64,000 nucleotides of DNA from an uncultured Gammaproteobacteria bacterium (GCA_902535975.1 CACAVP010000001.1:6352-70351); one strand, 5' to 3'; shown: positions 23,032-50,876, numbered from the stretch's first letter. Numbers and translations: made by a program. Notes: a model not told the origin generated them from the letters alone.

Positions 23032-23687
23032 AGATAAACTCTCTTAATTAAAAAAATAATGAGATTAATTATTATTGCTATGAAGATAAGCGATAATCCT
23101 AGATACATTGCTAATTCTAGTTCACCACGTGAGGTTTCTAGTACAATACTAGTTGTCATTACCCTGGATATGTTTGATATGTTACCACCAACTATGATTA
23201 CTGCTCCAACTTCTGATAATGCGCGCCCTAGACCTGTCATTGATACTATTACTAAATCAAATCGTGTTTCAAGTATTATGGTATTTATAATCTTTCCTCT
23301 AGATGCATTTAAAGATGACATATATTCACTTATTTCATGAAATTTATTTTCAAAAATAGTATACAGTAATGATGTTATTATTGGTGTGATAATTATGAAC
23401 TGAGCTATTATCATTATTGTCGGGCTGTAGAGAATATCTAGAAATCCCAGAACACCAGAATTAGAAAATATAATATATAGAAACAGACCTACTACTACTG
23501 GAGGAAGACTCATTAATGAGTTCACAATCAATAGAATAAAGCCTTTTCCTCGAAAATTATTTAATAATAAATATGATGACAAAAGAAGAGAGAATAGAAA
23601 TGCGAGGACTGTCGCAAAAACTGAGACATATAATGATAGTTGGATGATTTCAATGTATTCGTTAGTTAAAATACTAAGATAACTCAT
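23028..23687 (-). CDS. tupB: ABC transporter permease (TupB-like)
   Basis: Six hydrophobic helices. EAA-like loop. Overlaps the ATPase gene. Confidence 0.6.
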   Translation of the reverse strand: MSYLSILTNEYIEIIQLSLYVSVFATVLAFLFSLLLSSYLLLNNFRGKGFILLIVNSLMSLPPVVVGLFLYIIFSNSGVLGFLDILYSPTIMIIAQFIIITPIITSLLYTIFENKFHEISEYMSSLNASRGKIINTIILETRFDLVIVSMTGLGRALSEVGAVIIVGGNISNISRVMTTSIVLETSRGELELAMYLGLSLIFIAIIINLIIFLIKRVYL

Positions 23688-36466: not shown

Positions 36467-37223
36467 GCCAAGGGAATATTTTCTTAGACTGAGCTAGGTC
36501 ATTCAGATAATTCATGTCTCTCAATGTATCCATCGGTTGCCAGAAAAGTTCATGTTTATAAGCGCTAAGTTCATTTTTATCAGCCAATTTTTCAAGTGGC
36601 TCTCTTTCCCATATAGTCATGTCATTATTAATATAAGAGAATATTTCTGGCTCAAGAACAAAAAAACCTCCGTTTATCCAACCTGATTCTCCAATAGGTT
36701 TTTCAACAAATTTAGTTACAGATCCATTATCTAATGATACAGACCCAAACCTACCTTGTGGTTTAACTACTGTCATTGTTGAGATTTTTTTTGACTCCTT
36801 ATGGTGATCTAATAGTTTATTAATATCGATATTACCTACACCGTCACCATAAGTAAGAAAAAAGGTCCCATCTATATATTTTTTGATTCTTTGAATGCGG
36901 CCACCTGTCATTGTAGTTTCACCTGTATCAACTAACGTGACTCTCCAATTCTCCGAGTTATTTGAATGAACTTCCATCTTATTTTCTTTGAGATTAAATG
37001 TAATATCAGAATTACGAAGCAGAAAGTTAGAAAAATATTCTTTGATAGTATAACCTTTATAGCCACAACAGATTATAAAATCAGACACACCGTAGTAAGA
37101 ATATATCTTCATTACATGCCATAGAATTGGTTTGCCAGCAATCTCCACCATTGGTTTAGGCACTCTTGATGTCTCCTCTGAGAGTCTTGTTCCTAGGCCG
37201 CCAGCAAGAATTACTGCTTTCAT
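36450..37223 (-). CDS. rfbF: glucose-1-phosphate cytidylyltransferase
   Basis: MKAVILAGGLGTRLSEET..PKPMVEIAGKPILWHVMKIYS...FIICCGYKGY almost co-linear with Salmonella RfbF. Confidence 0.9.
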   Translation of the reverse strand: MKAVILAGGLGTRLSEETSRVPKPMVEIAGKPILWHVMKIYSYYGVSDFIICCGYKGYTIKEYFSNFLLRNSDITFNLKENKMEVHSNNSENWRVTLVDTGETTMTGGRIQRIKKYIDGTFFLTYGDGVGNIDINKLLDHHKESKKISTMTVVKPQGRFGSVSLDNGSVTKFVEKPIGESGWINGGFFVLEPEIFSYINNDMTIWEREPLEKLADKNELSAYKHELFWQPMDTLRDMNYLNDLAQSKKIFPWHDFKD

Positions 37224-37255
37224 AATAATCTCTGTAATATTTAAACTTATCTAAA

Positions 37256-38497
37256 CTAAAGTTTATGAGTAATGCAATAGTTTTTCAAACCTATAATTGT
37301 TGAATCAATAGCACTTGTACATTTCACAACTTTTAAATTTGTATTGTACTCTAATACTTCACAAAATTCAGGAATTTTCACACCAAGTGCACCAGTTACA
37401 TATATTTTTTTAAAATCTTGATAGCGTTTGATATCGTTGACGATAGATATATACTGATTAACAAGTGCCTTTTTTATAGAGTATATATAATCATCGATCT
37501 CGTTGATATTATCAATAGATGTTAAATTCTCATTTTTTTTATAACCATACAATCCTTTTATTATGCTCAGATTAATTTCATATTCATTATCATGATTTAT
37601 GTTATTACTAGTCTTGAATAACTTGTTCCAAAAAATAGAATCAATATTTTCATCAAATAGTGAATCGACATAAGAAGCATATTCATTAAGTACTCTGCCA
37701 CAAGGAATGTGCGTTAATGTATTAATGAATTTTTTATTCGCAAAGGGTCTAATTTCATAAGATAGATTTGGGGAATATTCCATGGAAACCTGAGAGCCTG
37801 TTCCCAGGTTTATGTTTACACTTGAAGACAAGTCAATTGACATTATAGCTGCTTGTAGATCACCTAAACCTCCATATATAGGGATATTTTTTTTTGAATA
37901 ATTTATATATCCAAGTGTTTCACTATATGATGAAACATCGTAAGTAATAATTTCTGTCTCATCCAAACTCTTCATCCAACTATTGTTCCAGATATCAAAT
38001 AATCCAGTGGCAGCAGCAAGATGTATGGATGTTTTATTGCTCCATGAACCATTTAAAAGAATTAAGGCGTCTATAAGTGAAAGGAGATGGCTTTTTTTAT
38101 GAAAATTTTCATGATACTTTAGATTGATTCTTGGTAACCCGACTTTGTCATTAATGCCAGTAATTTTTAACAAGCTGTCGTCTGGGCTTTGTATATTTTT
38201 TTCTTTGTTATGTGATAAATCTGCTCTCCATGATATATACAAATCTTCTTCTAATGGTGGCAAAGATTCAGATAATATAAATCCATGCATTTCAGAGCAT
38301 ATGGCTATTTTGTCAATGTCATGATGATATTCAAGATGTTCATGAAATCTCTCATTTATATACCTTAATGTTACTTTTGATCTTTCATTGAAAAATGTTC
38401 CAGGAGTGCTAAAAATATCTGACAAGACTTTAGTTTCAGAATTAAATAGCGATGATTTTACTCGACTAGCACCAAAGTCTATCAATAATATATTCAC
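37256..38497 (-). CDS. ASKHA-fold putative sugar/cyclitol kinase (hypothetical)
   Basis: N-terminal LLIDFGASRVK resembles the phosphate-1 motif of the actin-like ATPase/sugar kinase superfamily. Overlaps the DHQS-like gene by 4 nt. Confidence 0.3.
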   Translation of the reverse strand: MNILLIDFGASRVKSSLFNSETKVLSDIFSTPGTFFNERSKVTLRYINERFHEHLEYHHDIDKIAICSEMHGFILSESLPPLEEDLYISWRADLSHNKEKNIQSPDDSLLKITGINDKVGLPRINLKYHENFHKKSHLLSLIDALILLNGSWSNKTSIHLAAATGLFDIWNNSWMKSLDETEIITYDVSSYSETLGYINYSKKNIPIYGGLGDLQAAIMSIDLSSSVNINLGTGSQVSMEYSPNLSYEIRPFANKKFINTLTHIPCGRVLNEYASYVDSLFDENIDSIFWNKLFKTSNNINHDNEYEINLSIIKGLYGYKKNENLTSIDNINEIDDYIYSIKKALVNQYISIVNDIKRYQDFKKIYVTGALGVKIPEFCEVLEYNTNLKVVKCTSAIDSTIIGLKNYCITHKL

Positions 38498-39669
38498 ATC
38501 TGGCTTAAATTCTTAATTGTCTCATTGATTCGCTTATCACTCACTTCGTCAAGAGAGAAGTCAATAAATCTCATATCACCAATCCTGCTTATAATTGCTA
38601 ATTTTAAGTTTGACCCGATAACCTTTTTGTCTCTCTTTAGAAATTCAATAAAAGAACTATTTTTTAATGTAAAGAAATAGTCCAGTGAGTTTTTTGGGAC
38701 TATATTCATAACTATGTCCCTGATAACAGAGATGGTATCAGATGATAAATCTAAAATAGATCTAGAAAGTTCATTTTCAACCATGATCCCGAGCGCAACA
38801 GCTTGTCCATGTGGAATTTTAAAATCAACCATTGCTTCAATAGCATGACCTATGCTGTGACCATAATTCATTGATTTCCTATGATTAAGCTCAAACTCAT
38901 CATATTCCACTACTGACTTCTTAACAGATAAAGATAGCTTTATCAGTTTATCAAGAATTTCCTTATCTGGCTTTAAGAGACTATCATTAGATATCAAATG
39001 GTAAATAAGTTTTTTATATTGTAAAAAAACTTCCTCCCCACCTGTGATCGCTAACCTAAGAATTTCACCATAGCCTGAAAATATATCATCTTTATTAAGA
39101 GTATAATTAAAATTAGTATCAATAATTATTTCTCTTGGGGCGGAAAAGAGTGCAATTAAATTTTTGGTACCATTATGGTTCAAACCCGTCTTGCCCCCTA
39201 CGCAACTATCACTTTGACCCAATAAAGTTGTAGGGATATATTTCCAAGGTATCCCTCTTTTAAAGGTAGCTGCTGCATAAGCTACTAGATCTTGAATAAT
39301 TCCTCCACCTAACCCATAAATACATGTTCCTCGGTTAGCATTATTTTCAAGAAGAAAATCACATATTCTGAGAGCTTCATGAATATTTTTATTATCTTCT
39401 ACAGCTTCAACAATATAGGTAGGATAACTATTTAAAGTATCGCGTAAATTAGGATAAATCCTCATTATATTTTTATCAGCTATAAATATATAATCTGAAT
39501 ATTTTTCGTTATTTAGATCTATCTTACTTACAACATTATCAGTAAATGTTACTTTATAGTCTCGCGGTGAGGATGATATGCACATAGTATTTGAATTATT
39601 CAAATCCACATTAAAATCTGAACCATCAATTAAAAAATTATATTCACTAGTTGTTCTCAAAAAAACCAC
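38494..39669 (-). CDS. 3-dehydroquinate synthase-like sugar phosphate cyclase
   Basis: GLGGGIIQDLVAYAAATFKRGIPWKYIPTTLLGQSDSCVGGKTGLN, GTKNLIALFSAP and ELNHRKSMNYGHSIGHAIEA...HGQAVALG align block-for-block with AroB/DHQS-family motifs. ~80 aa N-terminal extension. Confidence 0.75.
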   Translation of the reverse strand: MVFLRTTSEYNFLIDGSDFNVDLNNSNTMCISSSPRDYKVTFTDNVVSKIDLNNEKYSDYIFIADKNIMRIYPNLRDTLNSYPTYIVEAVEDNKNIHEALRICDFLLENNANRGTCIYGLGGGIIQDLVAYAAATFKRGIPWKYIPTTLLGQSDSCVGGKTGLNHNGTKNLIALFSAPREIIIDTNFNYTLNKDDIFSGYGEILRLAITGGEEVFLQYKKLIYHLISNDSLLKPDKEILDKLIKLSLSVKKSVVEYDEFELNHRKSMNYGHSIGHAIEAMVDFKIPHGQAVALGIMVENELSRSILDLSSDTISVIRDIVMNIVPKNSLDYFFTLKNSSFIEFLKRDKKVIGSNLKLAIISRIGDMRFIDFSLDEVSDKRINETIKNLSQM

Positions 39670-40330
39670 CTGCTATAAATCCACCATCGATAGTAATATC
39701 TTGGCCAGTTAGATACGATGCTTTTTCACTACATAGGTAAAGCGCCATGTTACTTATGTCTTTAACATTTCCTAGTCTCTTCAAAGGTATTCGTGTTTCC
39801 AGTTTTACGATATCTTCTTTTGGAAGATTATTTCTTGTAAGTTTAGTATCAATAAAACCAGGAGTAATTGAGTTTACACGGATATCGTATTGACTAAGTT
39901 CTAAAGCAAGGTTTTTCATTACACCTTGTAACGCATGCTTTGATACAGAATACGGAAATCTACCAACTCTTCCATAGCTCGAATAAAGTGAGGAAATTAT
40001 AACTATCGATGATGATTTGGATAATAAATTCTTTGTTATCAAGTAATGGACTATCTTTACAAATGACATAAAGTTAATATTGATTGATTTAAGTATTCTT
40101 TCAATATCATCAGATTCAAAATGATTCAATTTATTATCTGCAGCACAAAAAATTAAGTTGTCATAAACAGTTACAATTGATTGAAGATATTTATCAACAG
40201 AGTCTTTTGAAGATAAATCTAAATCTGATCTTGTTGTTGCGATAACATTACTTGTTTTTGAAAATTCATCAGAAATAGACGTCCCAATATCGCCATTTCC
40301 TGAAATTATAAGAGTATTTTTCATGCTCAT
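39647..40330 (-). CDS. short-chain dehydrogenase/reductase (classical SDR)
   Basis: IISGNGDIG glycine motif. YSVSK catalytic motif. 227 aa. Confidence 0.7.
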   Translation of the reverse strand: MSMKNTLIISGNGDIGTSISDEFSKTSNVIATTRSDLDLSSKDSVDKYLQSIVTVYDNLIFCAADNKLNHFESDDIERILKSININFMSFVKIVHYLITKNLLSKSSSIVIISSLYSSYGRVGRFPYSVSKHALQGVMKNLALELSQYDIRVNSITPGFIDTKLTRNNLPKEDIVKLETRIPLKRLGNVKDISNMALYLCSEKASYLTGQDITIDGGFIAGGFFENN

Positions 40331-40344
40331 AGTATAAGTTTACC

Positions 40345-40755
40345 TCAATCCTCAGCTTTAAATGTAATTTTACTCTGCCAAAGATATCCAAATAATATAA
40401 CAGGTATTGCAAACATATATTGAGCAATTACAGGATGTAGACTTAAATAATATATCAGAGCAGGTAATATTATTATATTAAATAAATAAACAATTACATG
40501 ATAAGTACTAAACTTGAATAACTCTGATATATAATTACCAGAAGTCTTAAATACATAAATCTTATTAGTCATGTATGCAAATAGGACGGAAATTATGTAT
40601 GATCCCGTAAGAATTTGGAGATAGTGAAAATTAAATTCAAATAATACAAAGTATAAAATTGGGAATATACTAAGACCTACTATAGTATTTACGATTCCTA
40701 CATAGAGATAACTTTTTAATTTATTCTCAGCCAACACGTTGGTACTATTTTTCAT
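40345..40755 (-). CDS. GtrA-family polyprenyl-phosphate-sugar flippase-like membrane protein
   Basis: 136 aa with four hydrophobic helices. Y.YVGIVNTIVGLSIFPILYF N-terminus typical of GtrA. Confidence 0.55.
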   Translation of the reverse strand: MKNSTNVLAENKLKSYLYVGIVNTIVGLSIFPILYFVLFEFNFHYLQILTGSYIISVLFAYMTNKIYVFKTSGNYISELFKFSTYHVIVYLFNIIILPALIYYLSLHPVIAQYMFAIPVILFGYLWQSKITFKAED

Positions 40756-40853
40756 GATATTTGAATATAGTTGCTCTATGTTAGAAAATGATAGTTCATA
40801 TAATGTAATTTTTCCACATAATAAATAAGTAATGTATTTAAGCTATTGAATGT

Positions 40854-42884
40854 CTATTTTACAAAAGAATAAAATGAGTATAGCATTTTATTATTTACAT
40901 GTAATGCTTTTCCCTTATCAATAATTTCTTTATACCAATATTGATTAGATACATTCATTCTATAAACATATACACTCTCTTTTTTATAAGTAAAAGCCCT
41001 ATCCTCATAACATTGATGAACATTAGAGCATCTTGCTAGAACATTTTCAAAATCGTTCAAATGCATCTGAGAAACATAGAAAATTAAATCGGTACTATCT
41101 TTTAAATTACATTCATCAATAAAATCGGTAATAAATTCGCTATCACATGTTTCTGCGTCAATGTTCGCCCTTGCAAAGTTAATATTGTATTGACCAGAAA
41201 CGTATTTTTTAATGATAGAATCTTCCATCTTTTTTGGTGGCAAGAAGTTATTTTTTTTTATAAGTCCATAATGTCCCTGATGCACAACGTGTGGCATCTT
41301 TAACATATAAATATGCATTGGTGGATTATACTTCATTTGTTCAATAGTTTTTTTAAGACTAGAAGAGGATGTCGTATCGTACCAAAATAATAAATTATAT
41401 TTCGATTGATTATCACTTAAGAGATTAAACATTGGTATTGAAGGTGTGGTTAAGATATTATTGTTTTCATTTTTTTGAGCAAAAGAAATAATATCATGTG
41501 TAAATTTGTCCATATGTATACCTCTAAAAATACCACTCGAAAATGATCTTTCATTTTTAATGTTATCTATGATGCTATTTGTTTTATATCCCCACCATTC
41601 ATATGAAGGATTAACAAGTTTATTTATTCCAAAAAAGACAGTTACAGTAATTATGGGCAAGATAGTATTTCTTAAAATATAGCTATCATCAGCGTTGTGA
41701 CAATATTTCTTGATCACAAAAATTAACTCTGCAAAAAATAACGCAAGTAAGATTTCTAAACTTACAGAATTAAAACCAGCTGTAGTTGTTCCGCAGTACG
41801 CAAGTGCATATAACGGTATACACAACAACACCTCACCTTTGGAGTTATTTCTTAAAAGTCGTAACAGAGGCCAAGATAGTGCGAAGACGTAAAGCAGCGC
41901 TGTTTTTACTTTAAATATGATAAAAATAGATATTATTAATACGAGAATTAGTATCAGGTAGAGATGTGATCGGGCGTTAACATTAGATATTCCGATGAAT
42001 GTTGAAATATTTTGGTAGTAATTTCCTATGAATGAAGCAAGTTTTTCTTTATATGATTGGATTAGAAAATATACAGCATACACGAAGGTTATCAGTAATG
42101 CAGATACTGTTATGATTGCTCTATTACCTGGATCTAGAATAAACCTAGACAAAACGACGAATATAGACCCTTTTGGTGTATCAAGCGAGAAGATTGTTAC
42201 CCATGAAGGAGTTATGTAGGTCGTATAAGCTAATAATAAGGCTATACTCACCAAGAATACAAGATTCTTCTTTAGAATACCTAAAAAATTATAGCCATAG
42301 AGGATTAGAAATCCATTTAGATATAACAATAACCCAAAACCATAAATTACACCGATATTATGTTTAGTAAGGATTAGTAGACCTATTAATAATCCCGAAA
42401 ACAGAAATGTCTTATTTTTTATTTTATTACTTGCGCTTGGCAAAATGTAAATTGTGAGAGCAACAATAAGCGATACAATAGTGTGATAGTCTTTAGCAAC
42501 AAATGTTGAATTGCTTATTATTAAAAAAAATACTAATAATGAACTAATGATAGCAGAGTGAATGTCAGTATATTTTTTTAAGATTAAGAAAATTATATAA
42601 AAGTTTAATGCGTGCAATAAGGCGAATATATATCTCAAAGAAATAAAATCTAATCCAAAGAGATCTATTAATCTACTAAATACATGGACTGTTAAAGGGG
42701 GTAAAAAATAATTATATTCTTTATAAATATCTACTCCACTGTTTACATATACAGCAAAGCTTTCAAACCATCCCTCTGTGATGAAGAACTGATACTTAGA
42801 AATAAAATAATTAAAAATTAATATAACAGAAAAAAAAGCTATGTAGATGGCTAAGGATATAATATTTTTTTTATCAGTCTTCAA
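40854..42884 (-). CDS. large polytopic membrane protein with C-terminal soluble domain (GtrC/GT-C-like glycosyltransferase candidate)
   Basis: ~12 N-terminal TM helices plus ~250 aa hydrophilic C-terminus. Follows the GtrA-like gene. Confidence 0.3.
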   Translation of the reverse strand: MKTDKKNIISLAIYIAFFSVILIFNYFISKYQFFITEGWFESFAVYVNSGVDIYKEYNYFLPPLTVHVFSRLIDLFGLDFISLRYIFALLHALNFYIIFLILKKYTDIHSAIISSLLVFFLIISNSTFVAKDYHTIVSLIVALTIYILPSASNKIKNKTFLFSGLLIGLLILTKHNIGVIYGFGLLLYLNGFLILYGYNFLGILKKNLVFLVSIALLLAYTTYITPSWVTIFSLDTPKGSIFVVLSRFILDPGNRAIITVSALLITFVYAVYFLIQSYKEKLASFIGNYYQNISTFIGISNVNARSHLYLILILVLIISIFIIFKVKTALLYVFALSWPLLRLLRNNSKGEVLLCIPLYALAYCGTTTAGFNSVSLEILLALFFAELIFVIKKYCHNADDSYILRNTILPIITVTVFFGINKLVNPSYEWWGYKTNSIIDNIKNERSFSSGIFRGIHMDKFTHDIISFAQKNENNNILTTPSIPMFNLLSDNQSKYNLLFWYDTTSSSSLKKTIEQMKYNPPMHIYMLKMPHVVHQGHYGLIKKNNFLPPKKMEDSIIKKYVSGQYNINFARANIDAETCDSEFITDFIDECNLKDSTDLIFYVSQMHLNDFENVLARCSNVHQCYEDRAFTYKKESVYVYRMNVSNQYWYKEIIDKGKALHVNNKMLYSFYSFVK

Positions 42885-42931
42885 AGCAGTTACCTTTTTT
42901 AAAAAATTCGAATAGTGCGCTTATCATCATG

Positions 42932-44749
42932 TTAATTTATTTTTTTGTTCGTAAGAATGACTATTTCATCATAATTAAGGCTTTTGTTGAAATATGTTCC
43001 ATCATTAATAGTATTATATATTTCATCGTTTGCCATTAAACCTGCATCTGGGTTGCCTTTATAACTCAGGCCAATTATGTAATCTACGTCATTTTTTATT
43101 ATCTCTATAATATTATCAGACGAGACCTCCCTATATGAGGTTCCTAAGTGCCACCACAAAGGGAGTCCTGATGGTGGCACGATATTATACTTTGCATATA
43201 GATATTCAATTCTTGATAAAAATAGGATTTTCCTATTTTTAAGTTTATCTTGGTTGTCCTTAAAGAAACTCTCGACACTCTTCTCATAACGATAATGATA
43301 TTGTGATGTTTTATGATTTTTGAAAAATTCATCATCAAGAATTGCAGTATAGTCATTCCTATCAATAGGTGGCCCGGCAGTTAGAAGCTTTAATCTATAA
43401 AATCCCTCAAGAGAGAGGGAAACTATAATTATTATAGCCCATGGAGCTATAGTTTTTATAGTTGTTGAATCATAGGAATTATTTGCGATGAATGCTATCG
43501 CAATTGACAGAATAAGTATCCCGAAAGATGAAGACCTTACATCAAAACTTTGCAGAATTATAATAAATGTCAGTAATACACCAAAGAATCCCCATCCGAA
43601 CAAAATTAATTTATGCATACTAAATTGATCAGTAAAATCTTTTAGAACTCTATTTTTAATCAATGGTATCAGGAAATATATTGTTGTTATGAACAAGAAT
43701 AAGATTGGGATAATTTCCCAATTCCTTGATACCAATAAAAAGAAAAATGCAAAAAGGCCCAGCGTCCATGAAGGTGTAGGCCGATTGAATAGTCTCGATG
43801 AGATCAATTCTAATGTAAAAATAAGGATAAGTAGGAATTCAAAAAAATATAAAGAGTATTCTTTTAATCGTCCTCCAGATAAATCAAATAGATTAAATGT
43901 AAGTAATCCTGCATTAATAAAACCATGGATAGCAGACCTCTCACTCCCTATCATCGATAAATCATATATGTATTTGTTTATATCAAAAAATATAAAATTA
44001 GTTATTAGATATAGTGTTAAATAAAAAATAATACTTAAGTAAAAAATCCATATTAGGGTTAACTTTATTCGTTGATATATATTTATCTTAGTATCAAACA
44101 ATATCCATGTAGCAAGAAGCAAAGAATTCATTACTGCAAAACCCACACCTGTATTAGCTCGCATAAAACATAAAAACGATAAAATGAAAGCTAATAGAAT
44201 AATAGAAGGAGATGTTATCTTATTATAGTGCCTGTTGATGATTATTATGTACAAAAGAAAGGTTGAAAATGCTGCCATCACATTACTAGCATCATGAAGG
44301 TAAATAAAACCATCAGTTATTAAAGGCAATATGGTGGCAAATAAAAAAGCATAAAAAATTATTATGTTAGATTTTTTCGAGTTTAGATGATAATAAGTAC
44401 CGACTACAGCAAAGATAGATGTATAGATAATTAATCCATTAGTAAATAAATTCCATGTGACTCCATCATTGATAACAGCCATCAATTTTAAAATTACTGC
44501 AAAGCCAGGAGAAAAAGCATTATCAACAAAATCATGAAAGCTCTGACCGCTGTACATTGCTTGGGCAAGAGAAACAATAGGTGCGAGATCAAAACCTGCA
44601 AAACCTTTTGATCCTATAAAGGATGAATAGATTGCAGCTATCGTAAATACGAATGTCACAAAAAGAGCTTCTAGAAAATTTATTTTTTTAATAGCGTTCA
44701 ACAGAGGTTTCTCGTATTGTATAATCGGTATTTCCTGATCATTCTCCAA
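42932..44749 (-). CDS. large polytopic membrane protein (second GtrC/GT-C-like candidate, same layout as the neighbour)
   Basis: Same architecture as the 40854..42884 product. No verified catalytic motif. Confidence 0.3.
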   Translation of the reverse strand: MENDQEIPIIQYEKPLLNAIKKINFLEALFVTFVFTIAAIYSSFIGSKGFAGFDLAPIVSLAQAMYSGQSFHDFVDNAFSPGFAVILKLMAVINDGVTWNLFTNGLIIYTSIFAVVGTYYHLNSKKSNIIIFYAFLFATILPLITDGFIYLHDASNVMAAFSTFLLYIIIINRHYNKITSPSIILLAFILSFLCFMRANTGVGFAVMNSLLLATWILFDTKINIYQRIKLTLIWIFYLSIIFYLTLYLITNFIFFDINKYIYDLSMIGSERSAIHGFINAGLLTFNLFDLSGGRLKEYSLYFFEFLLILIFTLELISSRLFNRPTPSWTLGLFAFFFLLVSRNWEIIPILFLFITTIYFLIPLIKNRVLKDFTDQFSMHKLILFGWGFFGVLLTFIIILQSFDVRSSSFGILILSIAIAFIANNSYDSTTIKTIAPWAIIIIVSLSLEGFYRLKLLTAGPPIDRNDYTAILDDEFFKNHKTSQYHYRYEKSVESFFKDNQDKLKNRKILFLSRIEYLYAKYNIVPPSGLPLWWHLGTSYREVSSDNIIEIIKNDVDYIIGLSYKGNPDAGLMANDEIYNTINDGTYFNKSLNYDEIVILTNKKIN

Positions 44750-44888: not shown

Positions 44889-45095
44889 ATGCGATCTCTT
44901 TTACAGTTCTTTCTAATCTCAAATTTTCTTTTTTTTTCACATAATGCGTTTGCATACATGGACCCAGGCTCTTTATCTATTCTATTACAAATAATTATCG
45001 GAATCTTTGCATCTATTGCTATCTTTTTTAAACAATTAAAACAAAGGATATTAAATATTTTCAGAAGAACAAAGAAAAAAAATGATGATAAATGA
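44889..45095 (+). CDS. small membrane/secreted peptide (hypothetical)
   Basis: 68 aa with a hydrophobic N-terminus and a second hydrophobic helix. First gene of the plus-strand mini-operon. Confidence 0.25.
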   Translation: MRSLLQFFLISNFLFFSHNAFAYMDPGSLSILLQIIIGIFASIAIFFKQLKQRILNIFRRTKKKNDDK

Positions 45096-45135
45096 AGTTA
45101 TCTAAGTAAAATCTAAATGTAAAAATTTTTTTATT

Positions 45136-46524
45136 ATGGAAAAAATATCTAGCTCTTTCAAAGATAACTCAAACCAAGTATATGTCCATGATTCTAAAAT
45201 AATTAGAACTATAAATGTAGAAAAAAACTCTGCATATCCTAAAGTTTTTGAAGATGGGATCATAGATGAACTTATAAAAAAAGGAGATATAGTAAATTCA
45301 AAATTGATACCGCCTTTAGACTATAAAGACAAAAAAAATATATATATTGAACATGAAAAAATAAATTTTATATCATATCCATATGAATGGAGTAATATTT
45401 TTCTTTACCTTGCAGGTTTGAAAACACTTGAGATTAATAAAAGTTTATTGGAATATGGTTACCATTTAATTGATGCAAATGCATTTAATATTCAATTTAT
45501 AAATGGAAAACCAACTCTAATTGATCTTGGTTCTATCGTCAATTATGATAACAAATTTGGATGGCAAGGAATGCAAGAGTTTATATGTTCTTTTTTTAAT
45601 CCATTATATTTTATGTCAAGATCCTCAATTCGCTTCAATGATGTCTATAAAAGTTTCCTAAATGGTATACCTTCAAGCTTTATATATAAAACAAAAAATA
45701 TAAGAGATTTTTTCCGTTTACGATTTTTATTGAATATATTTTCTCATGAGCAACTAATGAAGAATATACATAAAAAAAATCAAATAAAAAATAAAAATAT
45801 AGAAAGTGTGAAATATATTTCTACTAATAAATATAAATCAATACTTGAATTGCAAGAGAGTTTTCTGAAGAAAACTTATTCCGATATTAAGAGCACTCGA
45901 TCATATTGGGATAGTTATGCAAGTAAAATGCATAACTATAGTGATACTGATATTGAGAAAAAGCAAAAAATTATTATTGATTATGTAAATAAATATAAAC
46001 CAAAATGTTTATTAGATCTGGGATGCAACAATGGTGATTATTCTCTACTTGCACATCAGAATGGTATTGAAAAAATTATAGCTGTTGATAATGATGAGAA
46101 TTGTATAGAAAGGTTAGCTCAAAAAGTAATAGATAGTAATCTTCCAATTGTTCCGCTGATAATAGATTTTACTAATGAGTCACCATTACATGGTTGGTCT
46201 GGTTCAGAGAGGTTTTCATTTTCCCATAGAGCTAAAGAATGTGATGGCGTCATTGCTTTAGCCCTAGTTCATCACTTGGTGATAGGAAAAAATATACCAA
46301 TGGATCAGGCAATAAAATGGATTATACAATCTTCAGAACATGGAGTTATAGAATTTGTAAAAAAAGAAGATAGTCAGATTAAGGAAATGCTCTCTTCAAG
46401 AAAAGATATATTTGAAGATTATAATATTGATACATTTAGAGATATTATGAAAAAAAATGTAAAGATATTAAATGAGAAAATATTAGATTCTAATACAAGA
46501 GTGATATTTATTTATGAAAAATAA
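45136..46524 (+). CDS. bifunctional kinase-like (APH/choline-kinase fold) / class I SAM-dependent methyltransferase fusion protein
   Basis: N-terminal domain HLIDANAFN...IDLGS (HxDxxxxN catalytic loop plus DxG metal loop). C-terminal domain LLDLGCNNGDYS (motif I) plus IAVDNDENCIERL. Confidence 0.5.
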   Translation: MEKISSSFKDNSNQVYVHDSKIIRTINVEKNSAYPKVFEDGIIDELIKKGDIVNSKLIPPLDYKDKKNIYIEHEKINFISYPYEWSNIFLYLAGLKTLEINKSLLEYGYHLIDANAFNIQFINGKPTLIDLGSIVNYDNKFGWQGMQEFICSFFNPLYFMSRSSIRFNDVYKSFLNGIPSSFIYKTKNIRDFFRLRFLLNIFSHEQLMKNIHKKNQIKNKNIESVKYISTNKYKSILELQESFLKKTYSDIKSTRSYWDSYASKMHNYSDTDIEKKQKIIIDYVNKYKPKCLLDLGCNNGDYSLLAHQNGIEKIIAVDNDENCIERLAQKVIDSNLPIVPLIIDFTNESPLHGWSGSERFSFSHRAKECDGVIALALVHHLVIGKNIPMDQAIKWIIQSSEHGVIEFVKKEDSQIKEMLSSRKDIFEDYNIDTFRDIMKKNVKILNEKILDSNTRVIFIYEK

Positions 46525-48031
46525 ATACTTATTCACTCTAATTCTTGGATTACTAATAATATTAGATAATTTATCCTTTGTATATTTTAATTATGCGAAA
46601 GAGATAGCTCCATCTCTCTTATATATTTTTGGTTTTTCATTTTTGATTTTTTCTGTTTTCTATTTTTTATTTAAAAAAACAATCTTTATAAATTATGTCA
46701 CTAGTTTTTATCTATTAACATTAGTGATGACATTTAAACTTCTTCAGTACTCATTTATAGCAAAATTAGATACTTTTTATTTATTCGTGTTATCAGTTTT
46801 AGTTTTTATTTTTATTAAATTATTTTTTGATAAAAAAAGAACTATAGATTTATTAATTATCGTTTTTTTTGTTTCCTCAACTTCGTTAATTTCAAATTAT
46901 CTAACTCAAAATGAAAATATTAATGATATTAAATATGAAATAACTAATGATCATAATAATTTTATTGATCAACTCTCTTCAATTAAATTAAAAAGTAAGC
47001 CAAATATATATTTAATAGGTTTTGATTCAATGACATCTAAGTCATGGCAAAAAAAATATTTTGGTTATGAAGAGAGTTATATTGAAACGTTAGATAAGTA
47101 CTATGAATCATACTCTGGATTTAATTTATACGTGCCAACTCTTCATGCTTTAAATGCGCTCATGAGACTAGATCAAGATAAAAAAATCTATGGTCCATTA
47201 ATGCCAACACTTGGATTAGTTAATGGAAAATATCGAAGTCCATTACTTTATTTGATGAAAAGTAATGGTTACACAACAAACTTTTACTATTATGATACTT
47301 ACTTTGGGGAAAAGGGAAGATATCTTGATAATCTTTATATTAATGAAAAGCAGATTTTAACTCATACTGCATTATGTCAGTCAAGCAATAGCATACAAAG
47401 AAAATTTTTCTTAATGGGAGCTTGTAATGAAGACACACTGATAGATGGTATATTGGGATATACGGGACCTGGGGTTGACATATATGAATGGCCAAAGATC
47501 ACTATCTCATTAGCTATAGATAGATCGATAAAATCAGGTAACCCTAATATAAATATTTTATTTTTTTATCGCCCTATAGGACATGTTCCGTCGGCATTTG
47601 ACTATAATAATGAACAACAGTTAGTAGATTATAAAAAATTCTATAGTCGCCATAGTGTTATAGCTAGAGAATTACTAGAGAAAATAAGAAATAAAATTTT
47701 AAGTAAAGACCCCAAAGCATTAGTTGTTGTTTTTGGTGATCATGGTCCTTACCTATCAAAAGGAGTAGATTGCTCTAAACAAGAAAATAAAACTTTTTGC
47801 ATACATAATACATACGCAGCAAATGTTAGTGTATTAAAAACAAATAATAGATGTTCATCAGAGTATAAATCATTCATCCGAGGAAATGTTATCACGCCAA
47901 GTGAAATTGTATTTTCTAAGTTGTCCTGCCTTTCGAAAAATCCTGTTCTTTTAAGACAACAAATAAAGTATAGAAATTCTTCAGAAACGAAGCCTGGATT
48001 TTTTGAAAATTTAGATAATTATTTGTACTAG
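46514..48031 (+). CDS. membrane-anchored alkaline-phosphatase-superfamily protein (phospho-substituent transferase/sulfatase-like)
   Basis: Five N-terminal TM helices. Soluble domain with IYLIGFDSMTS and VVVFGDHGPYL (GDHG) metal-ligand motifs. Confidence 0.4.
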   Translation: MKNKYLFTLILGLLIILDNLSFVYFNYAKEIAPSLLYIFGFSFLIFSVFYFLFKKTIFINYVTSFYLLTLVMTFKLLQYSFIAKLDTFYLFVLSVLVFIFIKLFFDKKRTIDLLIIVFFVSSTSLISNYLTQNENINDIKYEITNDHNNFIDQLSSIKLKSKPNIYLIGFDSMTSKSWQKKYFGYEESYIETLDKYYESYSGFNLYVPTLHALNALMRLDQDKKIYGPLMPTLGLVNGKYRSPLLYLMKSNGYTTNFYYYDTYFGEKGRYLDNLYINEKQILTHTALCQSSNSIQRKFFLMGACNEDTLIDGILGYTGPGVDIYEWPKITISLAIDRSIKSGNPNINILFFYRPIGHVPSAFDYNNEQQLVDYKKFYSRHSVIARELLEKIRNKILSKDPKALVVVFGDHGPYLSKGVDCSKQENKTFCIHNTYAANVSVLKTNNRCSSEYKSFIRGNVITPSEIVFSKLSCLSKNPVLLRQQIKYRNSSETKPGFFENLDNYLY

Positions 48032-48720
48032 AATTTTTTAAGTAAAGTTTGAGATATAATATAATCTTCGGGTATTCCGATATCGATAAAAATCCCTTCG
48101 AAGTTACATACACCTATTTTTTCAAAATTTTTTTTGATTGCTAAAAAATCTTGCTCGAAAGAAAAATTTAATCCTTCAGTAAAATCATCTAGCTGATTAG
48201 TTTTTAAATAATAAACACCTGCATTAATTATACCAGGCTCATTACTTCCTTTTTCCTCAAACCCAAGAAGATTGTTATCTTTAAAAGAAATTGAGCCGTA
48301 TCTTGATACATTTTTAACAAATATTCCACATAGAATTGATTTATTAATCTTGTTAAACGTTGACTCCACTAAATCATAATTAATGTCTGCAAAAGTATCT
48401 CCATTAAATACAAAAATACAATCTTCTGTTGCATGAGAAATTCCTAGCTTAATTGCACCACCGGTTCCTAACATGTCTTCTTCTTTTGAAAAAATTATTT
48501 CAGTACCAAAATCTTCTTTTGAAAAATAGTCTATAATATATTGACTTTTATAGCCTATAGATAGGATTACTCTTTTAAAATTATTTTTAACTAAATGTTT
48601 TATTAATATCTCTAGAAAGGGTCTCCCATTAATTAACGCCATTGGTTTAGGAATATCTTTTACTAGAGGTTTAAGCCTTGTTCCAAGTCCGCCTGCAAGA
48701 ATTATTGCTTCTCTAGTCAT
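48028..48720 (-). CDS. sugar-1-phosphate nucleotidyltransferase, short form (HddC-like heptose-1-P guanylyltransferase candidate)
   Basis: AIILAGGLGTRL..L....PKPM. 230 aa with no C-terminal extension. In an operon with the heptose genes. Confidence 0.55.
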   Translation of the reverse strand: MTREAIILAGGLGTRLKPLVKDIPKPMALINGRPFLEILIKHLVKNNFKRVILSIGYKSQYIIDYFSKEDFGTEIIFSKEEDMLGTGGAIKLGISHATEDCIFVFNGDTFADINYDLVESTFNKINKSILCGIFVKNVSRYGSISFKDNNLLGFEEKGSNEPGIINAGVYYLKTNQLDDFTEGLNFSFEQDFLAIKKNFEKIGVCNFEGIFIDIGIPEDYIISQTLLKKF

Positions 48721-48744: not shown

Positions 48745-49776
48745 TCACCTATTAAGAGGAATTTTTCCTCTTTTGATTTCAACTCGCCAATGTTCTAGCA
48801 AGTCACCAAACATTTTTTTTACTGGTATTTCTGGCTGCCAGTCAATAACTGAGGAAATTTTTGTATTATCAAACATTTGATAATCTGCATCAATTGGCCT
48901 TAATCTTGATTCTTCTTCAATTACAGTAATATCGTTTCTTGTGCTCATGCTCAACATGATATCTATGACCTCTGTCAATTTATAAGCCTCTTTTCCAGCA
49001 ATATTAAAATAGTCTCCTTTAGAGATTTTATTTTCATAACATGCGCATAAAAGCAAATAATACGCCCTTACCGCGTCTCTAGTATCTTGAAATGTCCTAA
49101 TACTAGACAAATTACCAACAAAAATATTTGGATCTTGAAGCCCAGCTTCAATGAGAGCTATCTGTTTCGCAACAGTACTCTCAAAAAAAACGTCACTTCT
49201 TCTCGGACCTGAATGTGTACCCATCCTAGTCACAAATGTTTTCATTTTGTATGCTTCGCCATAAAATCTTCCAAGGTGATCAGTTGCTATTTTACTTATA
49301 CTATATGGACTCGACCCATGAAAAGGAGTTGATTCATTAATCTTTTCCCCCGAAGGTTGCTTCCCATAAACTTCGCTTGAGGAACATATATGTATTGACG
49401 GGTCATATGAACAATTCTCTCCTACTTTTTTAATGCTCTCTAATAGATTCGTTGTACCGATGATATTCGTTTGTAATGTTTCTAATGGTATATCGAAGGA
49501 TGTTTTTGGGAATGATTGAGCTGCTAGATGCGATATAAATTTAGGCTTTTCTCTCAAAATAATATTGTAAATCGACACATAATCATTTAAGTCACCATAA
49601 CAGAGATATATTCTTTCTTTATTATTTATCTTTGTTGTTAGGTGATATAGGTTGTCCATAGGTTCTTGCCATCTCATAAATCCAATTATGTTTAAATCTG
49701 TATTTTCCAGAATATAATCAGCCAGTTGAGAACCTACTTGTCCAGTGATTCCAGTAATTAGTATTGAATTATTCAT
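48745..49776 (-). CDS. GDP-mannose/GDP-manno-heptose 4,6-dehydratase (Gmd/DmhA-like)
   Basis: ILITGITGQVGS...YGDL.D......I....P..I.HLAAQS matches the Gmd family. 343 aa. Confidence 0.75.
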   Translation of the reverse strand: MNNSILITGITGQVGSQLADYILENTDLNIIGFMRWQEPMDNLYHLTTKINNKERIYLCYGDLNDYVSIYNIILREKPKFISHLAAQSFPKTSFDIPLETLQTNIIGTTNLLESIKKVGENCSYDPSIHICSSSEVYGKQPSGEKINESTPFHGSSPYSISKIATDHLGRFYGEAYKMKTFVTRMGTHSGPRRSDVFFESTVAKQIALIEAGLQDPNIFVGNLSSIRTFQDTRDAVRAYYLLLCACYENKISKGDYFNIAGKEAYKLTEVIDIMLSMSTRNDITVIEEESRLRPIDADYQMFDNTKISSVIDWQPEIPVKKMFGDLLEHWRVEIKRGKIPLNR

Positions 49777-50876
49777 ATATACCTTTCAAAACATGAGAGC
49801 CATACTCTATATCCTTTAAAAAATTTGAGGAAAGTATTCTTCTCATCATTACTCAATTGATGAGTTTCATCGAGCTTTTTATCAAGTTCATTCAGTAAGT
49901 TTAAAGAAACATCAAAATATGTTTTACCGGATAGCTGAATTGATCTAAGCCAACCGACAAAAGTTTCAGTATTTTGATTTCCAAATATTTCAAGTTCTAG
50001 GTCATGCCATAAATTATGATCATTTCTATCCTGTTTAACCAGTGGAAAGCCAAAACTTATTGCATCATCAAAATAGTCGGCAACTCGCTTTGTAAAATAA
50101 CTTGCCCAAATGTCATCAAAGCGTCCAATATGAGGGCTAAGAAAATAGGATGGTATCGCTTCTCTGGCTAGGGCAGTATTTTGTGAGTTAAATGGGCACC
50201 ATGTATCTTTTTCTAGAGCAAAGTTATCATCACGTATATATCCAGTCACATCAATTGGATTAGTAAGTCTAGTTATTGCATCAATGTCAGGATCTCCTAA
50301 CCAAAGCCCACCATTAACAACCACCTTTTTACTTTTAATAGATTCAATTTTTTTAGCTCTTGAAATTTGTCTTTCTGATATGGGGTAACCTCGAGCAAAA
50401 AATTCTCTACTATTCTTATCAATTAAAAAATCACAAATATTTAGCCATGAGGAAGAGGTCTCTAAAACCGGCAAACTAATAGTTGATCCAACATTTTGAT
50501 GACCATCTAAATACCCCTCACGCTCTATAAAATTATCATCATCTATGGTGATTATCACATCAGAGTTATTTTCATATGCGAAAAGTATACCCACATTTCT
50601 TCTTTGAACACAATTCCATGGTAAAAAGTTTAGAAGTTCAGGATATTTCTCTAGATAGTTATTCTGTTTCTCGACATCAAAGTATTGAAAATCATAATTG
50701 AACTTATCATTTAGAGATTCTACGTATGGTTTAGCCTTTTTATCGGTTTTTTTATCTCCAATAACGATAAAAGATACGTTCTTATAATCATGATTGATAC
50801 AATCATTTGCATAGTCTTCAAGTAAAACTGGATTATTGATTGTAGTTGTAACTATTGAGAATTTTTTATTAGTCAT
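49773..50876 (-). CDS. GT75 / reversibly-glycosylated-polypeptide-like protein (putative NDP-sugar pyranose-furanose mutase)
   Basis: VIITIDDDNF, FARGYPISERQ, GGLWLGDPDIDAITRL and GRFDDIWASYF blocks parallel plant RGP/UDP-arabinopyranose mutase motifs. Confidence 0.5.
   Translation of the reverse strand: MTNKKFSIVTTTINNPVLLEDYANDCINHDYKNVSFIVIGDKKTDKKAKPYVESLNDKFNYDFQYFDVEKQNNYLEKYPELLNFLPWNCVQRRNVGILFAYENNSDVIITIDDDNFIEREGYLDGHQNVGSTISLPVLETSSSWLNICDFLIDKNSREFFARGYPISERQISRAKKIESIKSKKVVVNGGLWLGDPDIDAITRLTNPIDVTGYIRDDNFALEKDTWCPFNSQNTALAREAIPSYFLSPHIGRFDDIWASYFTKRVADYFDDAISFGFPLVKQDRNDHNLWHDLELEIFGNQNTETFVGWLRSIQLSGKTYFDVSLNLLNELDKKLDETHQLSNDEKNTFLKFFKGYRVWLSCFERYI

Follow-up and report, generated by a model that had tools for sequence, protein, structure and literature searches.

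In the LPS core, the sugar kinase WaaP, which has a protein-kinase-like (PKL) fold, phosphorylates a lipid-linked glycan, and after export the alkaline-phosphatase (AlkP)-family enzymes EptC/CptA add a further phospho-group. The donors of LtaS, EptA, BcsG and OpgB are ordinary phospholipids, and no dedicated kinase or methyltransferase is needed. Enzymes of the LtaS/EptA/OpgB type release diacylglycerol, which is recycled by dedicated kinases (DgkA, DgkB). Proteins are modified as well; for example, PptA acts on pilin, and EptC on FlgG.

Three further systems resemble the locus described here. WbdD of E. coli O9a is a bifunctional kinase/methyltransferase that caps O-polysaccharide with methyl phosphate (PDB 4azs/4ax8; PMC3482155). 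In the BcsE-BcsF-BcsG system of E. coli type II cellulose, an amphipathic extension and a C-terminal tail of BcsF recruit cytosolic BcsE (PMC11470070). Finally, three-component periplasmic glycosylation systems of the GtrA/GtrB/GtrC type have been summarised (PMC13390465).

The present locus lies in a 64,000-nucleotide stretch of DNA from an uncultured Gammaproteobacteria bacterium, hereafter the window. Three plus-strand open reading frames (ORFs) had been predicted in it, and all were recovered by ORF calling with exactly the extents claimed: a 68-aa small membrane peptide (44889..45095); a 462-aa two-domain cytoplasmic enzyme, in which a PKL domain is fused to a class I SAM methyltransferase (45136..46524); and a 505-aa polytopic membrane protein with an extracytoplasmic AlkP-superfamily domain (46514..48031). 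The last two ORFs overlap by 11 nt, and the 3′ end of the 505-aa gene shares 4 nt with that of a convergent gene (48028-48720). The G+C content of the trio, 0.235-0.243 versus about 0.32, is the minimum of the window, and a promoter/terminator scan was uninformative in such AT-rich DNA (26 sites found vs 28 expected). The three genes are real rather than chance ORFs, since each has relatives in the databases: 1,690 for the 462-aa protein (best E = 9e-207), four close and many distant ones for the 505-aa protein, and a family of at least 914 clusters for the peptide. One near-identical contig, L085, is a frameshifted nanopore assembly.

Every motif quoted in the original prediction was located (LLDLGCNNGDYS, HLIDANAFN, IDLGS, GFDSMTS and GDHG), but all three proteins fall short of every curated cut-off in Pfam, NCBIfam and PADLOC. 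Of the Pfam families proposed for them, PF01636 gave no match to the window proteins, and the methyltransferase (E about 3e-4, 21 bits) and Sulfatase (PF00884, 19.4 bits vs a cut-off of 25) matches lie below gathering thresholds. The kinase-like, methyltransferase and AlkP calls are backed instead by structure prediction and profile searches.

The 462-aa fusion is predicted to have neither a TM segment nor a signal peptide. In its AF2 model (pLDDT 90, pTM 0.91), residues 1-255 (45136..45900, plus strand) adopt a bilobal kinase fold. Invariant residues of this PKL domain are S7, D10, R24, E84, W85, D113, N118, D130 and W143, with D113, N118, D130, S7, D10 and R24 conserved in 100% of 107 representatives that are merely 22-35% identical to the window protein. 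The catalytic-loop motif D113-x4-N118 is followed at the usual spacing, 12 residues on, by the putative metal-binding D130 (the DFG equivalent), roles that are assigned from motif spacing rather than superposition. The catalytic loop had been described as HxDxxxxN; it is present, although the string reads H-x-x-D-x4-N. H110 of HLIDANAFN is not conserved, and the conserved element is D113-x4-N118 ... D130, the last of these lying with S133 in IDLGS. The N-lobe has no invariant Lys and no recognisable beta3-Lys/alphaC-Glu pair; an invariant R24 occupies the third strand and an invariant E84 follows strand 5. Because that pair is not recognisable and R24 stands there instead, ATP-dependent phosphotransfer is no more than likely. 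The activation segment is very short, and the protein-kinase activation-loop and substrate-binding subdomains are absent.

At the sequence level, a direct assignment to the aminoglycoside (APH) or choline kinases is ruled out by the absence of any Pfam or NCBIfam match, APH (PF01636) included, to residues 1-255 at E <= 0.1; a profile of the domain likewise found no match among PDB sequences at E <= 10. The sole APH link is the top Foldseek match, to the APH-type kinase AmiN (E = 1.2e-4). Of the aminoglycoside/choline-kinase fold originally proposed, the kinase-like structure stands and the family membership by sequence does not, and the domain is, on its model, a remote and minimal PKL domain. 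It has no sequence relation to WaaP.

The remainder of the fusion (residues ~256-462; 45901..46521, plus strand) is a class I SAM-dependent methyltransferase domain, as had been predicted. The model shows a Rossmann-like fold, motif I (LLDLGCNNGDYS; D294-L-G-C-N-N-G300, with D294, G296, N298 and G300) and, where beta2 ends, an acidic residue. Residues of note in the domain include the acidic D318/D320, H379-H380, and R359, R365 and R455. In the 107 representatives, D294, G296, G300, H379, H380, R365 and R455 are 97-99% conserved, and conservation across the two domains indicates that both putative active sites are under strong selection. The phosphate methyltransferase of WbdD needs an HH pair plus an Arg, but an HH after beta4 is widespread in class I methyltransferases and is no specific mark of phosphate methylation (PMC3482155). 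The HH pair (379-380) and Arg residues of the fusion are thus compatible with methyl-phosphate formation without being specific for it. WbdD also offers a precedent for a kinase and a methyltransferase in one protein (PMC3482155). Its layout, however, is methyltransferase-kinase-coiled-coil with a C-terminal region that recruits WbdA, whereas the present protein runs from kinase to methyltransferase, ends at residue 462 and has no coiled-coil.

The 505-aa protein has five predicted N-terminal TM helices (residues about 5-131), all before D171 and none after it; a Kyte-Doolittle scan returns four at a threshold of 1.6 and five at 1.5. Its extracytoplasmic AlkP-superfamily domain spans residues about 160-505 and carries a metal/nucleophile set of D171 (in GFDSMTS), T209, H357, and D409 and H410 (in GDHG). 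Typical of the superfamily are such metal ligands (an Asp after beta1, a His and an Asp-His pair), with the nucleophile some 40 residues beyond the first Asp. Among 33 partner proteins from other loci, each residue of the set is conserved in 27-33; D171, H357 and D409 occur in all 33, and T209 is Thr in 31 and Ser in two. Most partners have 4-5 TM helices before the AlkP domain (range 3-6). Searched against the PDB, a profile of the partners matched sulfatases (E = 5e-13), LtaS (3.6e-12) and the EptA-like 4kav (1e-4), and aligned T209 with the Cys/Ser nucleophile of sulfatases; a shallow alignment of five AlkP sequences found no match in the same kind of search. Partners from different sequence clusters all match PF00884 above its cut-off (26.7-80.6 bits). 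The formylglycine motif C/S-x-P-x-R is absent: the site reads V-P-T209-L-H-A-L, and no P-x-R occurs in the partners. There are no NCBIfam matches for the 505-aa protein, and distant partners score far under the cut-offs of the LtaS and YejM models (32 bits vs 970).

Profile, residue conservation and TM scan therefore bear out the call of a transferase-type AlkP-superfamily enzyme that is anchored in the membrane and has Thr as its nucleophile. Its predicted architecture (~5 TM helices, an external AlkP domain and a Thr/Ser nucleophile) is that of LtaS, EptA and BcsG, and the likeness extends to MCR-1, EptC/CptA, OpgB and GacH, which also have Asp/His ligands. Sequence identity to these enzymes is nevertheless very low, and no family model in Pfam or NCBIfam reaches its cut-off. 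Moreover, the known enzymes use existing phosphatidylglycerol or phosphatidylethanolamine and are not coupled genetically to a kinase-methyltransferase. The WaaP-EptC/CptA pair is an established kinase-to-AlkP relay across the membrane, but its genes are unlinked and come with neither a methyltransferase nor a peptide.

The original prediction had treated the 68-aa peptide as an incidental upstream ORF. In fact, no other partner is linked to the fusion as tightly. Its residues 1-22 resemble a Sec-type signal peptide, with a basic n-region, a hydrophobic h-region and a terminal A-F-A (M-R-S...FLFFSHN-A-F-A, then Y); this assignment was made by eye and from residue counts, and cleavage is predicted. 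Ala occupies position -1 in 50 and position -3 in 39 of 65 homologues. The predicted mature N-terminus, Y23-M-D-P-G-S-L-S-I-L-L-Q34, precedes and enters a single TM helix (about residues 29-47) that is followed by a basic C-terminal tail. The signature YMDPGSLSILLQ (44955..44990, plus strand; family consensus YLDPG[TS]GSxxLQ) is predicted to lie outside the cytoplasm and in the outer leaflet. Across the family, the mature N-terminus takes the form Y-x-D-P-x3-S-x3-Q with one TM helix and a basic tail, and Y1, D3, P4, S8 and Q12 are invariant or nearly so in 65-67 homologues. Position 6 (T/S) varies, as in YIDPGAGS and YLDPGFFS, and at no position of the cytosolic tail is a Ser, Thr, Tyr, Lys or Arg conserved in the same set. 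In several monoderm-type lineages, the gene starts directly at M-Y-L-D-P-G. The best 120 family matches are all stand-alone proteins of 51-77 aa, with no fusions among them; translational fusions of peptide and kinase-methyltransferase suggested by extended ORFs were rejected as ORF-calling artefacts in high-GC genomes.

The BcsEFG operon has the same layout: it combines BcsF, a single-pass membrane peptide of ~60 aa, with the soluble, multidomain BcsE of the cytosol and with BcsG, a polytopic transferase of AlkP fold (PMC11470070). The two peptides are not homologous, however, and neither are BcsE and the kinase-methyltransferase: BcsE is a catalytically dead, c-di-GMP-binding regulator, whereas the fusion retains catalytic residues in both domains. 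BcsF lacks a conserved external motif, the gene order is different, and BcsE and BcsF make no direct contact with BcsG.

The fusion family comprises about 5,200 cluster representatives at 50% identity and is present in at least 598 species; the module as a whole spans no fewer than 15 bacterial phyla. Its hosts include Proteobacteria (with SAR11-type marine bacteria), Nitrospirota, Chloroflexota, Acidobacteriota and Gemmatimonadota, as well as Bacteroidota, Planctomycetota, Chlamydiota and Patescibacteria. A peptide homologue lies directly upstream of the fusion gene in 73 of 78 species loci, at a median gap of 4 nt; this count uses a relaxed signature, and a stricter regex, which misses variant motifs, gives 58 of 78. 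The signature matched 76 times in 901 kb of related loci, nearly always beside a fusion gene, and a reversed-sequence control gave 0 matches. Reciprocally, three of four peptides on long contigs adjoin a fusion gene. An AlkP-type gene follows the fusion directly in 49 of 72 loci, and in 61 of 80 it is present anywhere within the fetched locus (up to about 13 kb). This gene neighbourhood is repeated across 15 phyla or more, and the stop codon of one gene often overlaps the start codon of the next. Roughly a third of loci lack an AlkP gene immediately after the fusion, and roughly a quarter lack one within the fetched span; no consistent substitute gene was seen in such loci. Across phyla, then, linkage of peptide and fusion is obligate and that of the AlkP gene frequent.

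Beyond the trio, no neighbour is conserved across 80 species, so the module appears self-contained. Neither a fourth conserved gene nor a glycan-locus setting in general could be upheld, as no family recurs in 125 flanking genes (GT2 occurs in 5 of the 125). An anti-phage defence reading was likewise set aside: PADLOC has no match for the three window proteins, and on a homologue it gave a generic methyltransferase-domain match alone (mad2, 3e-8).

The local surroundings are lineage-specific. On the minus strand, divergent from the trio, 40345..44749 holds a GtrA-type protein (40345-40755), a 676-aa PMT_2/GT-C-like membrane protein (40854-42884), both called by Pfam, and a polytopic protein of 605 aa that belongs to no Pfam family (42932-44749). 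In the closest relatives (L001-L004), where the GtrA/GT-C periplasmic glycan-modification context is kept, the trio is adjoined by homologues of the two larger proteins (676 and 605 aa), which is not the case in the 80 species loci. The divergent orientation, from which separate regulation had been proposed, is not conserved, the trio being co-directional with its neighbours in L001-L003. Nor is the module tied to this polysaccharide island, since nothing outside the trio is conserved across the 80 species; the trio is not an island-specific operon, and polysaccharide decoration is at best a local acceptor rather than its defining function. The Gtr systems share a logic with the trio: the lipid-linked donor is made by an enzyme at the cytoplasmic face and moved or escorted by a small membrane protein, and a polytopic enzyme with its active site outside passes the group on to an envelope polymer. 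Like them, the trio is a mobile, self-contained accessory module, and here it sits directly beside GtrA and GT-C genes. There is no homology, however; the trio would handle a phospho-substituent rather than a sugar, and its small partner has one TM helix rather than 3-4. That the peptide might serve as a flippase is wholly conjectural.

The probable role of the module is to place a phosphate-based group on the cell envelope or to process one there. From the modelled folds, the conserved catalytic residues and the predicted topologies, we infer the substrates, the order of reactions and the physical contacts of a self-contained, membrane-spanning module that handles a phospho-group; in the specific form that follows, this reading is tentative, with somewhat less than an even chance of being right. 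The peptide would span the membrane with the N-terminus facing out and the C-terminus facing in, an arrangement reached in diderm lineages after signal-peptidase cleavage following A-x-A, and its basic tail may dock the soluble fusion at the membrane, much as BcsF docks BcsE. At the cytoplasmic face, the PKL domain would phosphorylate a hydroxyl on some non-protein molecule at the membrane, for example a lipid or a lipid-linked glycan. The methyltransferase domain would act next on that molecule, and the simplest reaction, known from WbdD, would be O-methylation of the phosphate just added. Once the product has been transferred to the outer face, Thr209 and the metal site D171/H357/D409/H410 of the AlkP enzyme would form a covalent phospho-enzyme intermediate, and the enzyme would move the phospho-substituent onto an extracytoplasmic acceptor, or trim it. 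For this genome and the relatives closest to it, the probable acceptor is the surface glycan modified by the neighbouring GtrA/GT-C genes, and addition of methyl phosphate to this glycan, as originally suggested, is plausible by analogy with WbdD. The functional link between fusion and AlkP enzyme could still be indirect, given that LtaS, EptA, BcsG and OpgB work without a dedicated kinase or methyltransferase. In addition, the invariant residues of the peptide sit outside rather than on the cytosolic tail supposed to bind the fusion, so a purely anchoring role would leave them unexplained.

Several other readings were weighed against this module. A phospholipid head-group cycle, in which the AlkP enzyme, like LtaS and EptA, takes a phospho-head group from a glycerophospholipid and frees diacylglycerol, the PKL domain re-phosphorylates diacylglycerol or polyprenol, and the methyltransferase remakes a methylated donor, would account for the kinase-methyltransferase fusion, and a lipid substrate would account for a self-contained module that works in any phylum. 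The diacylglycerol left by LtaS/EptA/OpgB-type enzymes must indeed be recycled by dedicated kinases, and a short activation segment is typical of PKL kinases acting on small molecules or lipids rather than proteins. We know of no diacylglycerol or polyprenol kinase with a PKL fold, however, the AlkP gene is not always adjacent, and the external motif of the peptide goes unexplained; this cycle is rather unlikely. Alternatively, the substrate may be a protein, on the model of PptA and EptC: the fusion would phosphorylate and/or methylate the peptide or the AlkP protein inside, and/or the AlkP enzyme would place a phospho-group on Ser8 outside. The lack of a conserved Ser, Thr, Tyr, Lys or Arg position in the peptide tail, the missing protein-kinase subdomains and the variability of position 6 all argue against such a system, which we regard as unlikely.

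That the fusion is a WbdD-like cytoplasmic chain terminator, which would set the length of a lipid-linked glycan by placing methyl phosphate on its non-reducing end, with the AlkP enzyme functionally unrelated, is quite unlikely. The domain order is reversed, a coiled-coil or C-terminal ruler is lacking (462 aa vs 708 aa), and similarity to WbdD is restricted to motif I of the methyltransferase (E = 0.007). Pfam scans that covered most of the island ORFs identified no Wzm/Wzt-type polysaccharide ABC exporter; the only ABC genes adjoin a solute-binding protein (21609-23687), and a Wzy_C protein is present in the island. Moreover, the family occurs mostly outside glycan loci, and the obligate peptide and frequently overlapping AlkP gene would be unexplained. 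Loose or chance linkage, with a periplasmic nutrient-scavenging sulfatase or phosphatase beside a methyltransferase whose "kinase" is a non-catalytic substrate-binding module, is suggested by the Pfam name Sulfatase, the atypical N-lobe with R24 in place of Lys, and generic database names. It is very improbable in view of the Thr that replaces the formylglycine motif (T-L-H-A-L), partners that mostly carry 4-5 TM helices and are not secreted, adjacency in at least 15 phyla with often overlapping codons, and the complete conservation of D113, N118 and D130, which is unexpected for a pseudokinase.

The boldest reading of the trio is a previously unrecognised, self-regenerating donor cycle for phosphodiester decoration of the envelope. 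Here, the PKL domain would phosphorylate diacylglycerol, polyprenol or polyprenyl phosphate, the methyltransferase would make a methyl-phosphate head group, the YLDPG peptide would oligomerise via its Gly/Ala-rich TM helix and escort the donor outward, and the AlkP enzyme would transfer the group via Thr209 to an acceptor on the surface and free the lipid alcohol for a further round. This cycle is decidedly doubtful; if true, it would imply a new class of lipid-linked donor and a new and widespread surface modification, and the peptide would be a small escort or flippase subunit of a novel type.

No curated model exists for the family of any of the three components, and literature searches on the motif and the gene combination found nothing relevant, PMC13390465 being concerned with unrelated, separate genes. 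A widespread, mobile envelope-modification module would bear on surface chemistry, recognition by phages and grazers, and antigenic variation in abundant environmental bacteria, and the kinase-like domain would be a new bacterial family of the PKL superfamily. The obligate, translationally coupled peptide, with its five near-invariant residues, offers a compact genetic handle on the module and exemplifies the functional small proteins overlooked by most gene callers and annotators. The fusion, for its part, is mislabelled in public databases, either under the name "ribosomal protein L11 methyltransferase" or with a generic methyltransferase label.

The three plus-strand genes encode a 68-aa small membrane protein (44889–45095), a 462-aa fusion of a protein-kinase-like domain with a class I SAM methyltransferase domain (45136–46524), and a 505-aa membrane-anchored enzyme of the alkaline phosphatase (AlkP) superfamily (46514–48031), the latter two ORFs sharing 11 nt. 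These co-directional ORFs match the coordinates of the original prediction exactly. Its interpretation, in which a kinase, a methyltransferase and a phospho-group transferase act together on the polysaccharide, was partly supported as a whole. All of the motifs it quoted were found, although its “HxD” is actually H110-x-x-D113, of which the family keeps only D113-x4-N118. Almost all neighbouring genes between 20 kb and 54 kb of the window lie on the minus strand. The trio is also the G+C minimum of the window (0.235–0.243 over 45000–47000, versus ~0.32 window-wide), a drop that would fit horizontal gain of the module. In Pfam, NCBIfam and PADLOC, all three proteins stay below the curated cut-offs, and curated domain libraries give no match at all for residues 1–255 of the fusion or for the whole 68-aa peptide.

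The main new result is that the peptide-fusion-AlkP module recurs across phyla. With one genome scanned per species, the fusion occurs in at least 598 species, which represent Alpha- and Gammaproteobacteria, Acidobacteriota, Chloroflexota, Gemmatimonadota, Nitrospirota, Bacteroidota, Planctomycetota, Lentisphaerota, Chlamydiota, Spirochaetota, Bacillota, Actinomycetota and Patescibacteria, together with a Candidatus Limenecus MAG. Cultured carriers include Kiloniella litopenaei P1-1 (locus L018), Nitratireductor arenosus and Vibrio breoganii. Clustering of the neighbours in 80 loci revealed a homologue of the 68-aa peptide just before the fusion (−1) and, just after it (+1), an AlkP-type protein. 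In 73 of 78 loci the peptide gene, recognized by a relaxed signature, lies directly 5′ of the fusion gene, the median gap being 4 nt; two Bacteroidales loci have it downstream instead. An AlkP partner lies directly 3′ in 49 of 72 loci, and 61 of 80 carry one at some position. Where no AlkP gene is adjacent, nothing takes its place consistently, and no family is conserved outside the trio, the commonest among 125 flanking genes being GT2 (five genes). The module is notable because it is found so widely, is sharply defined and lends itself to direct testing.

The peptide family is characterized by the consensus YLDPG[TS]GSxxLQ, followed by a small-residue-rich TM helix and a basic aromatic tail. 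Y1 (Tyr23 of the precursor), S8 and Q12 of the signature are invariant, and D3 and P4 are conserved at ≥90%. Before this Tyr, most diderm lineages encode a textbook signal peptide that ends in A-x-A (Ala at −1 in 50/65). In some other lineages, several Chloroflexota and Gemmatimonadota among them, the gene begins at M-Y-L-D-P-G or a few residues ahead of it. Both forms are predicted to yield the same mature peptide, with its N-terminus outside and its tail inside. The relaxed signature has only 76 matches over 901 kb, against zero when the sequence is reversed as a control. A reciprocal search with the peptide profile returned 914 clusters, and the best 120 are all stand-alone proteins of 51–77 aa. 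Four peptide genes were located on long contigs: three adjoin a fusion gene (E ≤ 1e-132), one of these in a full trio, and the fourth is an orphan. The orphan YIDPGTGS gene (contig L088, 5001–5180) has no kinase-methyltransferase or AlkP gene within 5 kb; the peptide is thus at times separated from its partners, or may rely on ones located elsewhere.

The fusion has 1,690 relatives in the database search, and the best 120 are mostly full-length (435–504 aa), with one 298-aa fragment. A search with the N-terminal domain alone matched 5,208 cluster representatives at 50% identity, 3,808 of them at E ≤ 1e-10. Nearly all are ~460 aa long with the domain at the N-terminus, and the fusion architecture is therefore fixed. 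Foldseek matched this domain to kinases only (E ~1e-4, TM-scores 0.3–0.45), headed by the APH-type amicoumacin kinase AmiN and RIO kinases. The predicted kinase-like fold is therefore confirmed, as that of a remote, minimal superfamily member, but membership of the APH/choline kinase (ChoK) family fails on sequence. Only ~8 residues separate D130 from the next helix, a short segment that appears to resemble those of RIO, APH and choline kinases and to lack the activation loop of protein kinases. The canonical β3-Lys/αC-Glu pair was not identified in the N-terminal domain, and R24 may stand in for its role. For the methyltransferase domain, class I models match residues ~277–382, but below threshold (E ~3e-4).

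Conservation was assessed in 107 full-length representatives that are only 22–35% identical to the window protein. S7, D10, R24, D113, N118, D130 and W143 are 100% conserved in this set, and the methyltransferase residues D294, G296, G300, H379, H380, R365 and R455 are so at 97–99%. Since catalytic residues persist across such divergent proteins, both active sites look functional. The best 120 relatives carry no source label, “PrmA”, or “class I SAM-dependent methyltransferase”. Some family members (e.g., MBC8296020.1 and several JGI entries) are labelled “50S ribosomal protein L11 methyltransferase / PrmA”. This label is almost certainly wrong, since the match is confined to the SAM-binding motif and scores 16–19 bits against a cut-off of 183.

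Close relatives of the 505-aa AlkP protein are rare, with four in the database search. Its PF00884 match, expected from the original prediction, is present at residues 386–422 but falls short of the cut-off (19.4 versus 25 bits). In other phyla, the products of the gene 3′ of the fusion form three sequence clusters, all above that cut-off. In an alignment of 33 partners, those outside the sequence cluster of the window protein being 11–17% identical to it, D171, H357 and D409 are kept in 33/33 and H410 in 27/33, while position 209 is Thr in 31 and Ser in two. Ahead of the catalytic domain most partners have 4–5 predicted TM helices (range 3–6), with none after it. Against solved structures, the partner profile matched sulfatases (E = 5e-13), LtaS (3.6e-12) and an EptA-like protein (1e-4). 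Thr209 aligns with the Cys/Ser nucleophile of sulfatases; the motif C/S-x-P-x-R is absent, which rules out a formylglycine sulfatase. Given the position of Thr209 and the TM layout, the claim of a transferase-type enzyme holds: layout and nucleophile type are those of the lipid-dependent phosphotransferases LtaS, EptA, OpgB and BcsG, with the protein falling below the cut-off of every curated model for these four. Two tandem AlkP paralogues lie 3′ of the fusion gene in loci L038 and L047, and in L019 (3515–3763 and ~5800) two YLDPGTGS peptides and two AlkP genes surround one fusion gene. Such duplication gives a hint that the external enzyme has diversified, perhaps towards different acceptors.

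From the observed folds, conserved residues, topology predictions and gene linkage, we tentatively favor a membrane-spanning module that handles a phospho-group. The soluble kinase-methyltransferase would be docked at the membrane by the cytosolic tail of the peptide, much as BcsF docks BcsE, both being encoded beside the AlkP-fold BcsG (PMC11470070). It would phosphorylate, then methylate, a membrane-associated non-protein substrate, for which WbdD, whose phosphate-methylating domain requires an HH pair and an Arg, is a precedent (PMC3482155). Outside the membrane, Thr209 of the AlkP enzyme would transfer or trim the phospho-substituent. Here we infer the substrates, the reaction order and the physical contacts. 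The trio is rated as a putative envelope phospho-modification system, a known kind, here built from new families. It works most like a cross between WbdD chemistry and the three-component logic of BcsEFG and Gtr while belonging to none of these families, and no publication on the peptide motif or the gene combination was found in a literature search.

The phospho-group model has its weak points. The invariant, outward-facing residues of the peptide are unexplained by a simple anchor role. A rival reading, in which a protein-directed system acts on the peptide itself, is improbable, and the kinase-like domain appears to lack a protein-kinase activation loop. To our knowledge, the LtaS/EptA-type enzymes characterised so far do without a kinase or methyltransferase of their own. 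A cycle that recycles diacylglycerol or a phospholipid head group is unlikely, if a shade less so than the peptide-substrate system. The fusion fails WbdD membership on architecture, and a WbdD-like terminator is marginally more doubtful than either. Adjacency of the AlkP gene is not universal; that the genes are unrelated is very improbable, with the same gene order recurring across phyla.

In the window, the module with its putative phospho-group role sits in a surface-glycan locus containing a Wzy_C protein, NeuB, RmlD, several GT2s, nucleotide-sugar enzymes, two GtrA proteins, a PMT_2/GT-C protein and an initiating Bac_transf. In its closest relatives (loci L001–L004, 51–68% identity), the trio adjoins homologues of a 676-aa GT-C-like protein, a 605-aa membrane protein and GtrA. 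In this lineage, therefore, the module has been recruited into a periplasmic glycan-modification gene set. The divergent orientation, earlier read as a sign of separate regulation, is present but particular to this genome, as the trio is co-directional with those neighbours in L001–L003. The 605-aa polytopic protein (42932–44749, minus strand), which adjoins both the trio and the PMT_2/GT-C protein in L001–L004, has no Pfam or NCBIfam family and is probably a second, unclassified GT-C-like transferase. A metagenome contig, L085 (ENA ERZ28548060, agincourt1_1__contig_5567_pilon), has the same gene order as the window, with homologues of the fusion and AlkP proteins (P0002, P0121) that are 98–99% identical. 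Many of its genes are fragmented, including those for the fusion (298 aa) and AlkP protein (434 aa), and are probably split by long-read frameshift errors rather than being pseudogenes.

The island carries further minus-strand genes of note. A 3-dehydroquinate-synthase-like gene of the sugar-phosphate cyclase type (38494–40330, with 36450–38497) adjoins an SDR, a 413-aa protein without a Pfam family and a nucleotidyltransferase, a set that suggests an unusual cyclitol or carbasugar, or a rearranged heptose-type building block. A full-length, three-domain, acetolactate-synthase-like thiamine-diphosphate enzyme (599 aa, 32591–34390) is encoded beside two NAD-dependent epimerase/dehydratases, with a homologue near the trio in L001 and L004; it could be YerE-like, making a branched-chain sugar. 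A 367-aa protein of the plant-type “reversibly glycosylated polypeptide” family (PF03214, E = 6.5e-11; 49773–50876), uncommon in bacterial glycan loci, is encoded between a GDP-mannose-dehydratase-like gene and an epimerase, and also in L085. A formate-tetrahydrofolate ligase (26503–28176, 883 bits), mid-island between the Wzy_C-type protein and the NeuB-family gene, may be a trapped housekeeping gene, or may instead supply formyl groups for an N-formylated sugar. At the island edge lies a compact ABC importer set (PBP_like_2 binding protein, ATPase and permease; 21609–23687, minus strand), adjoined by a photolyase-related DPRP gene (20047–21534).
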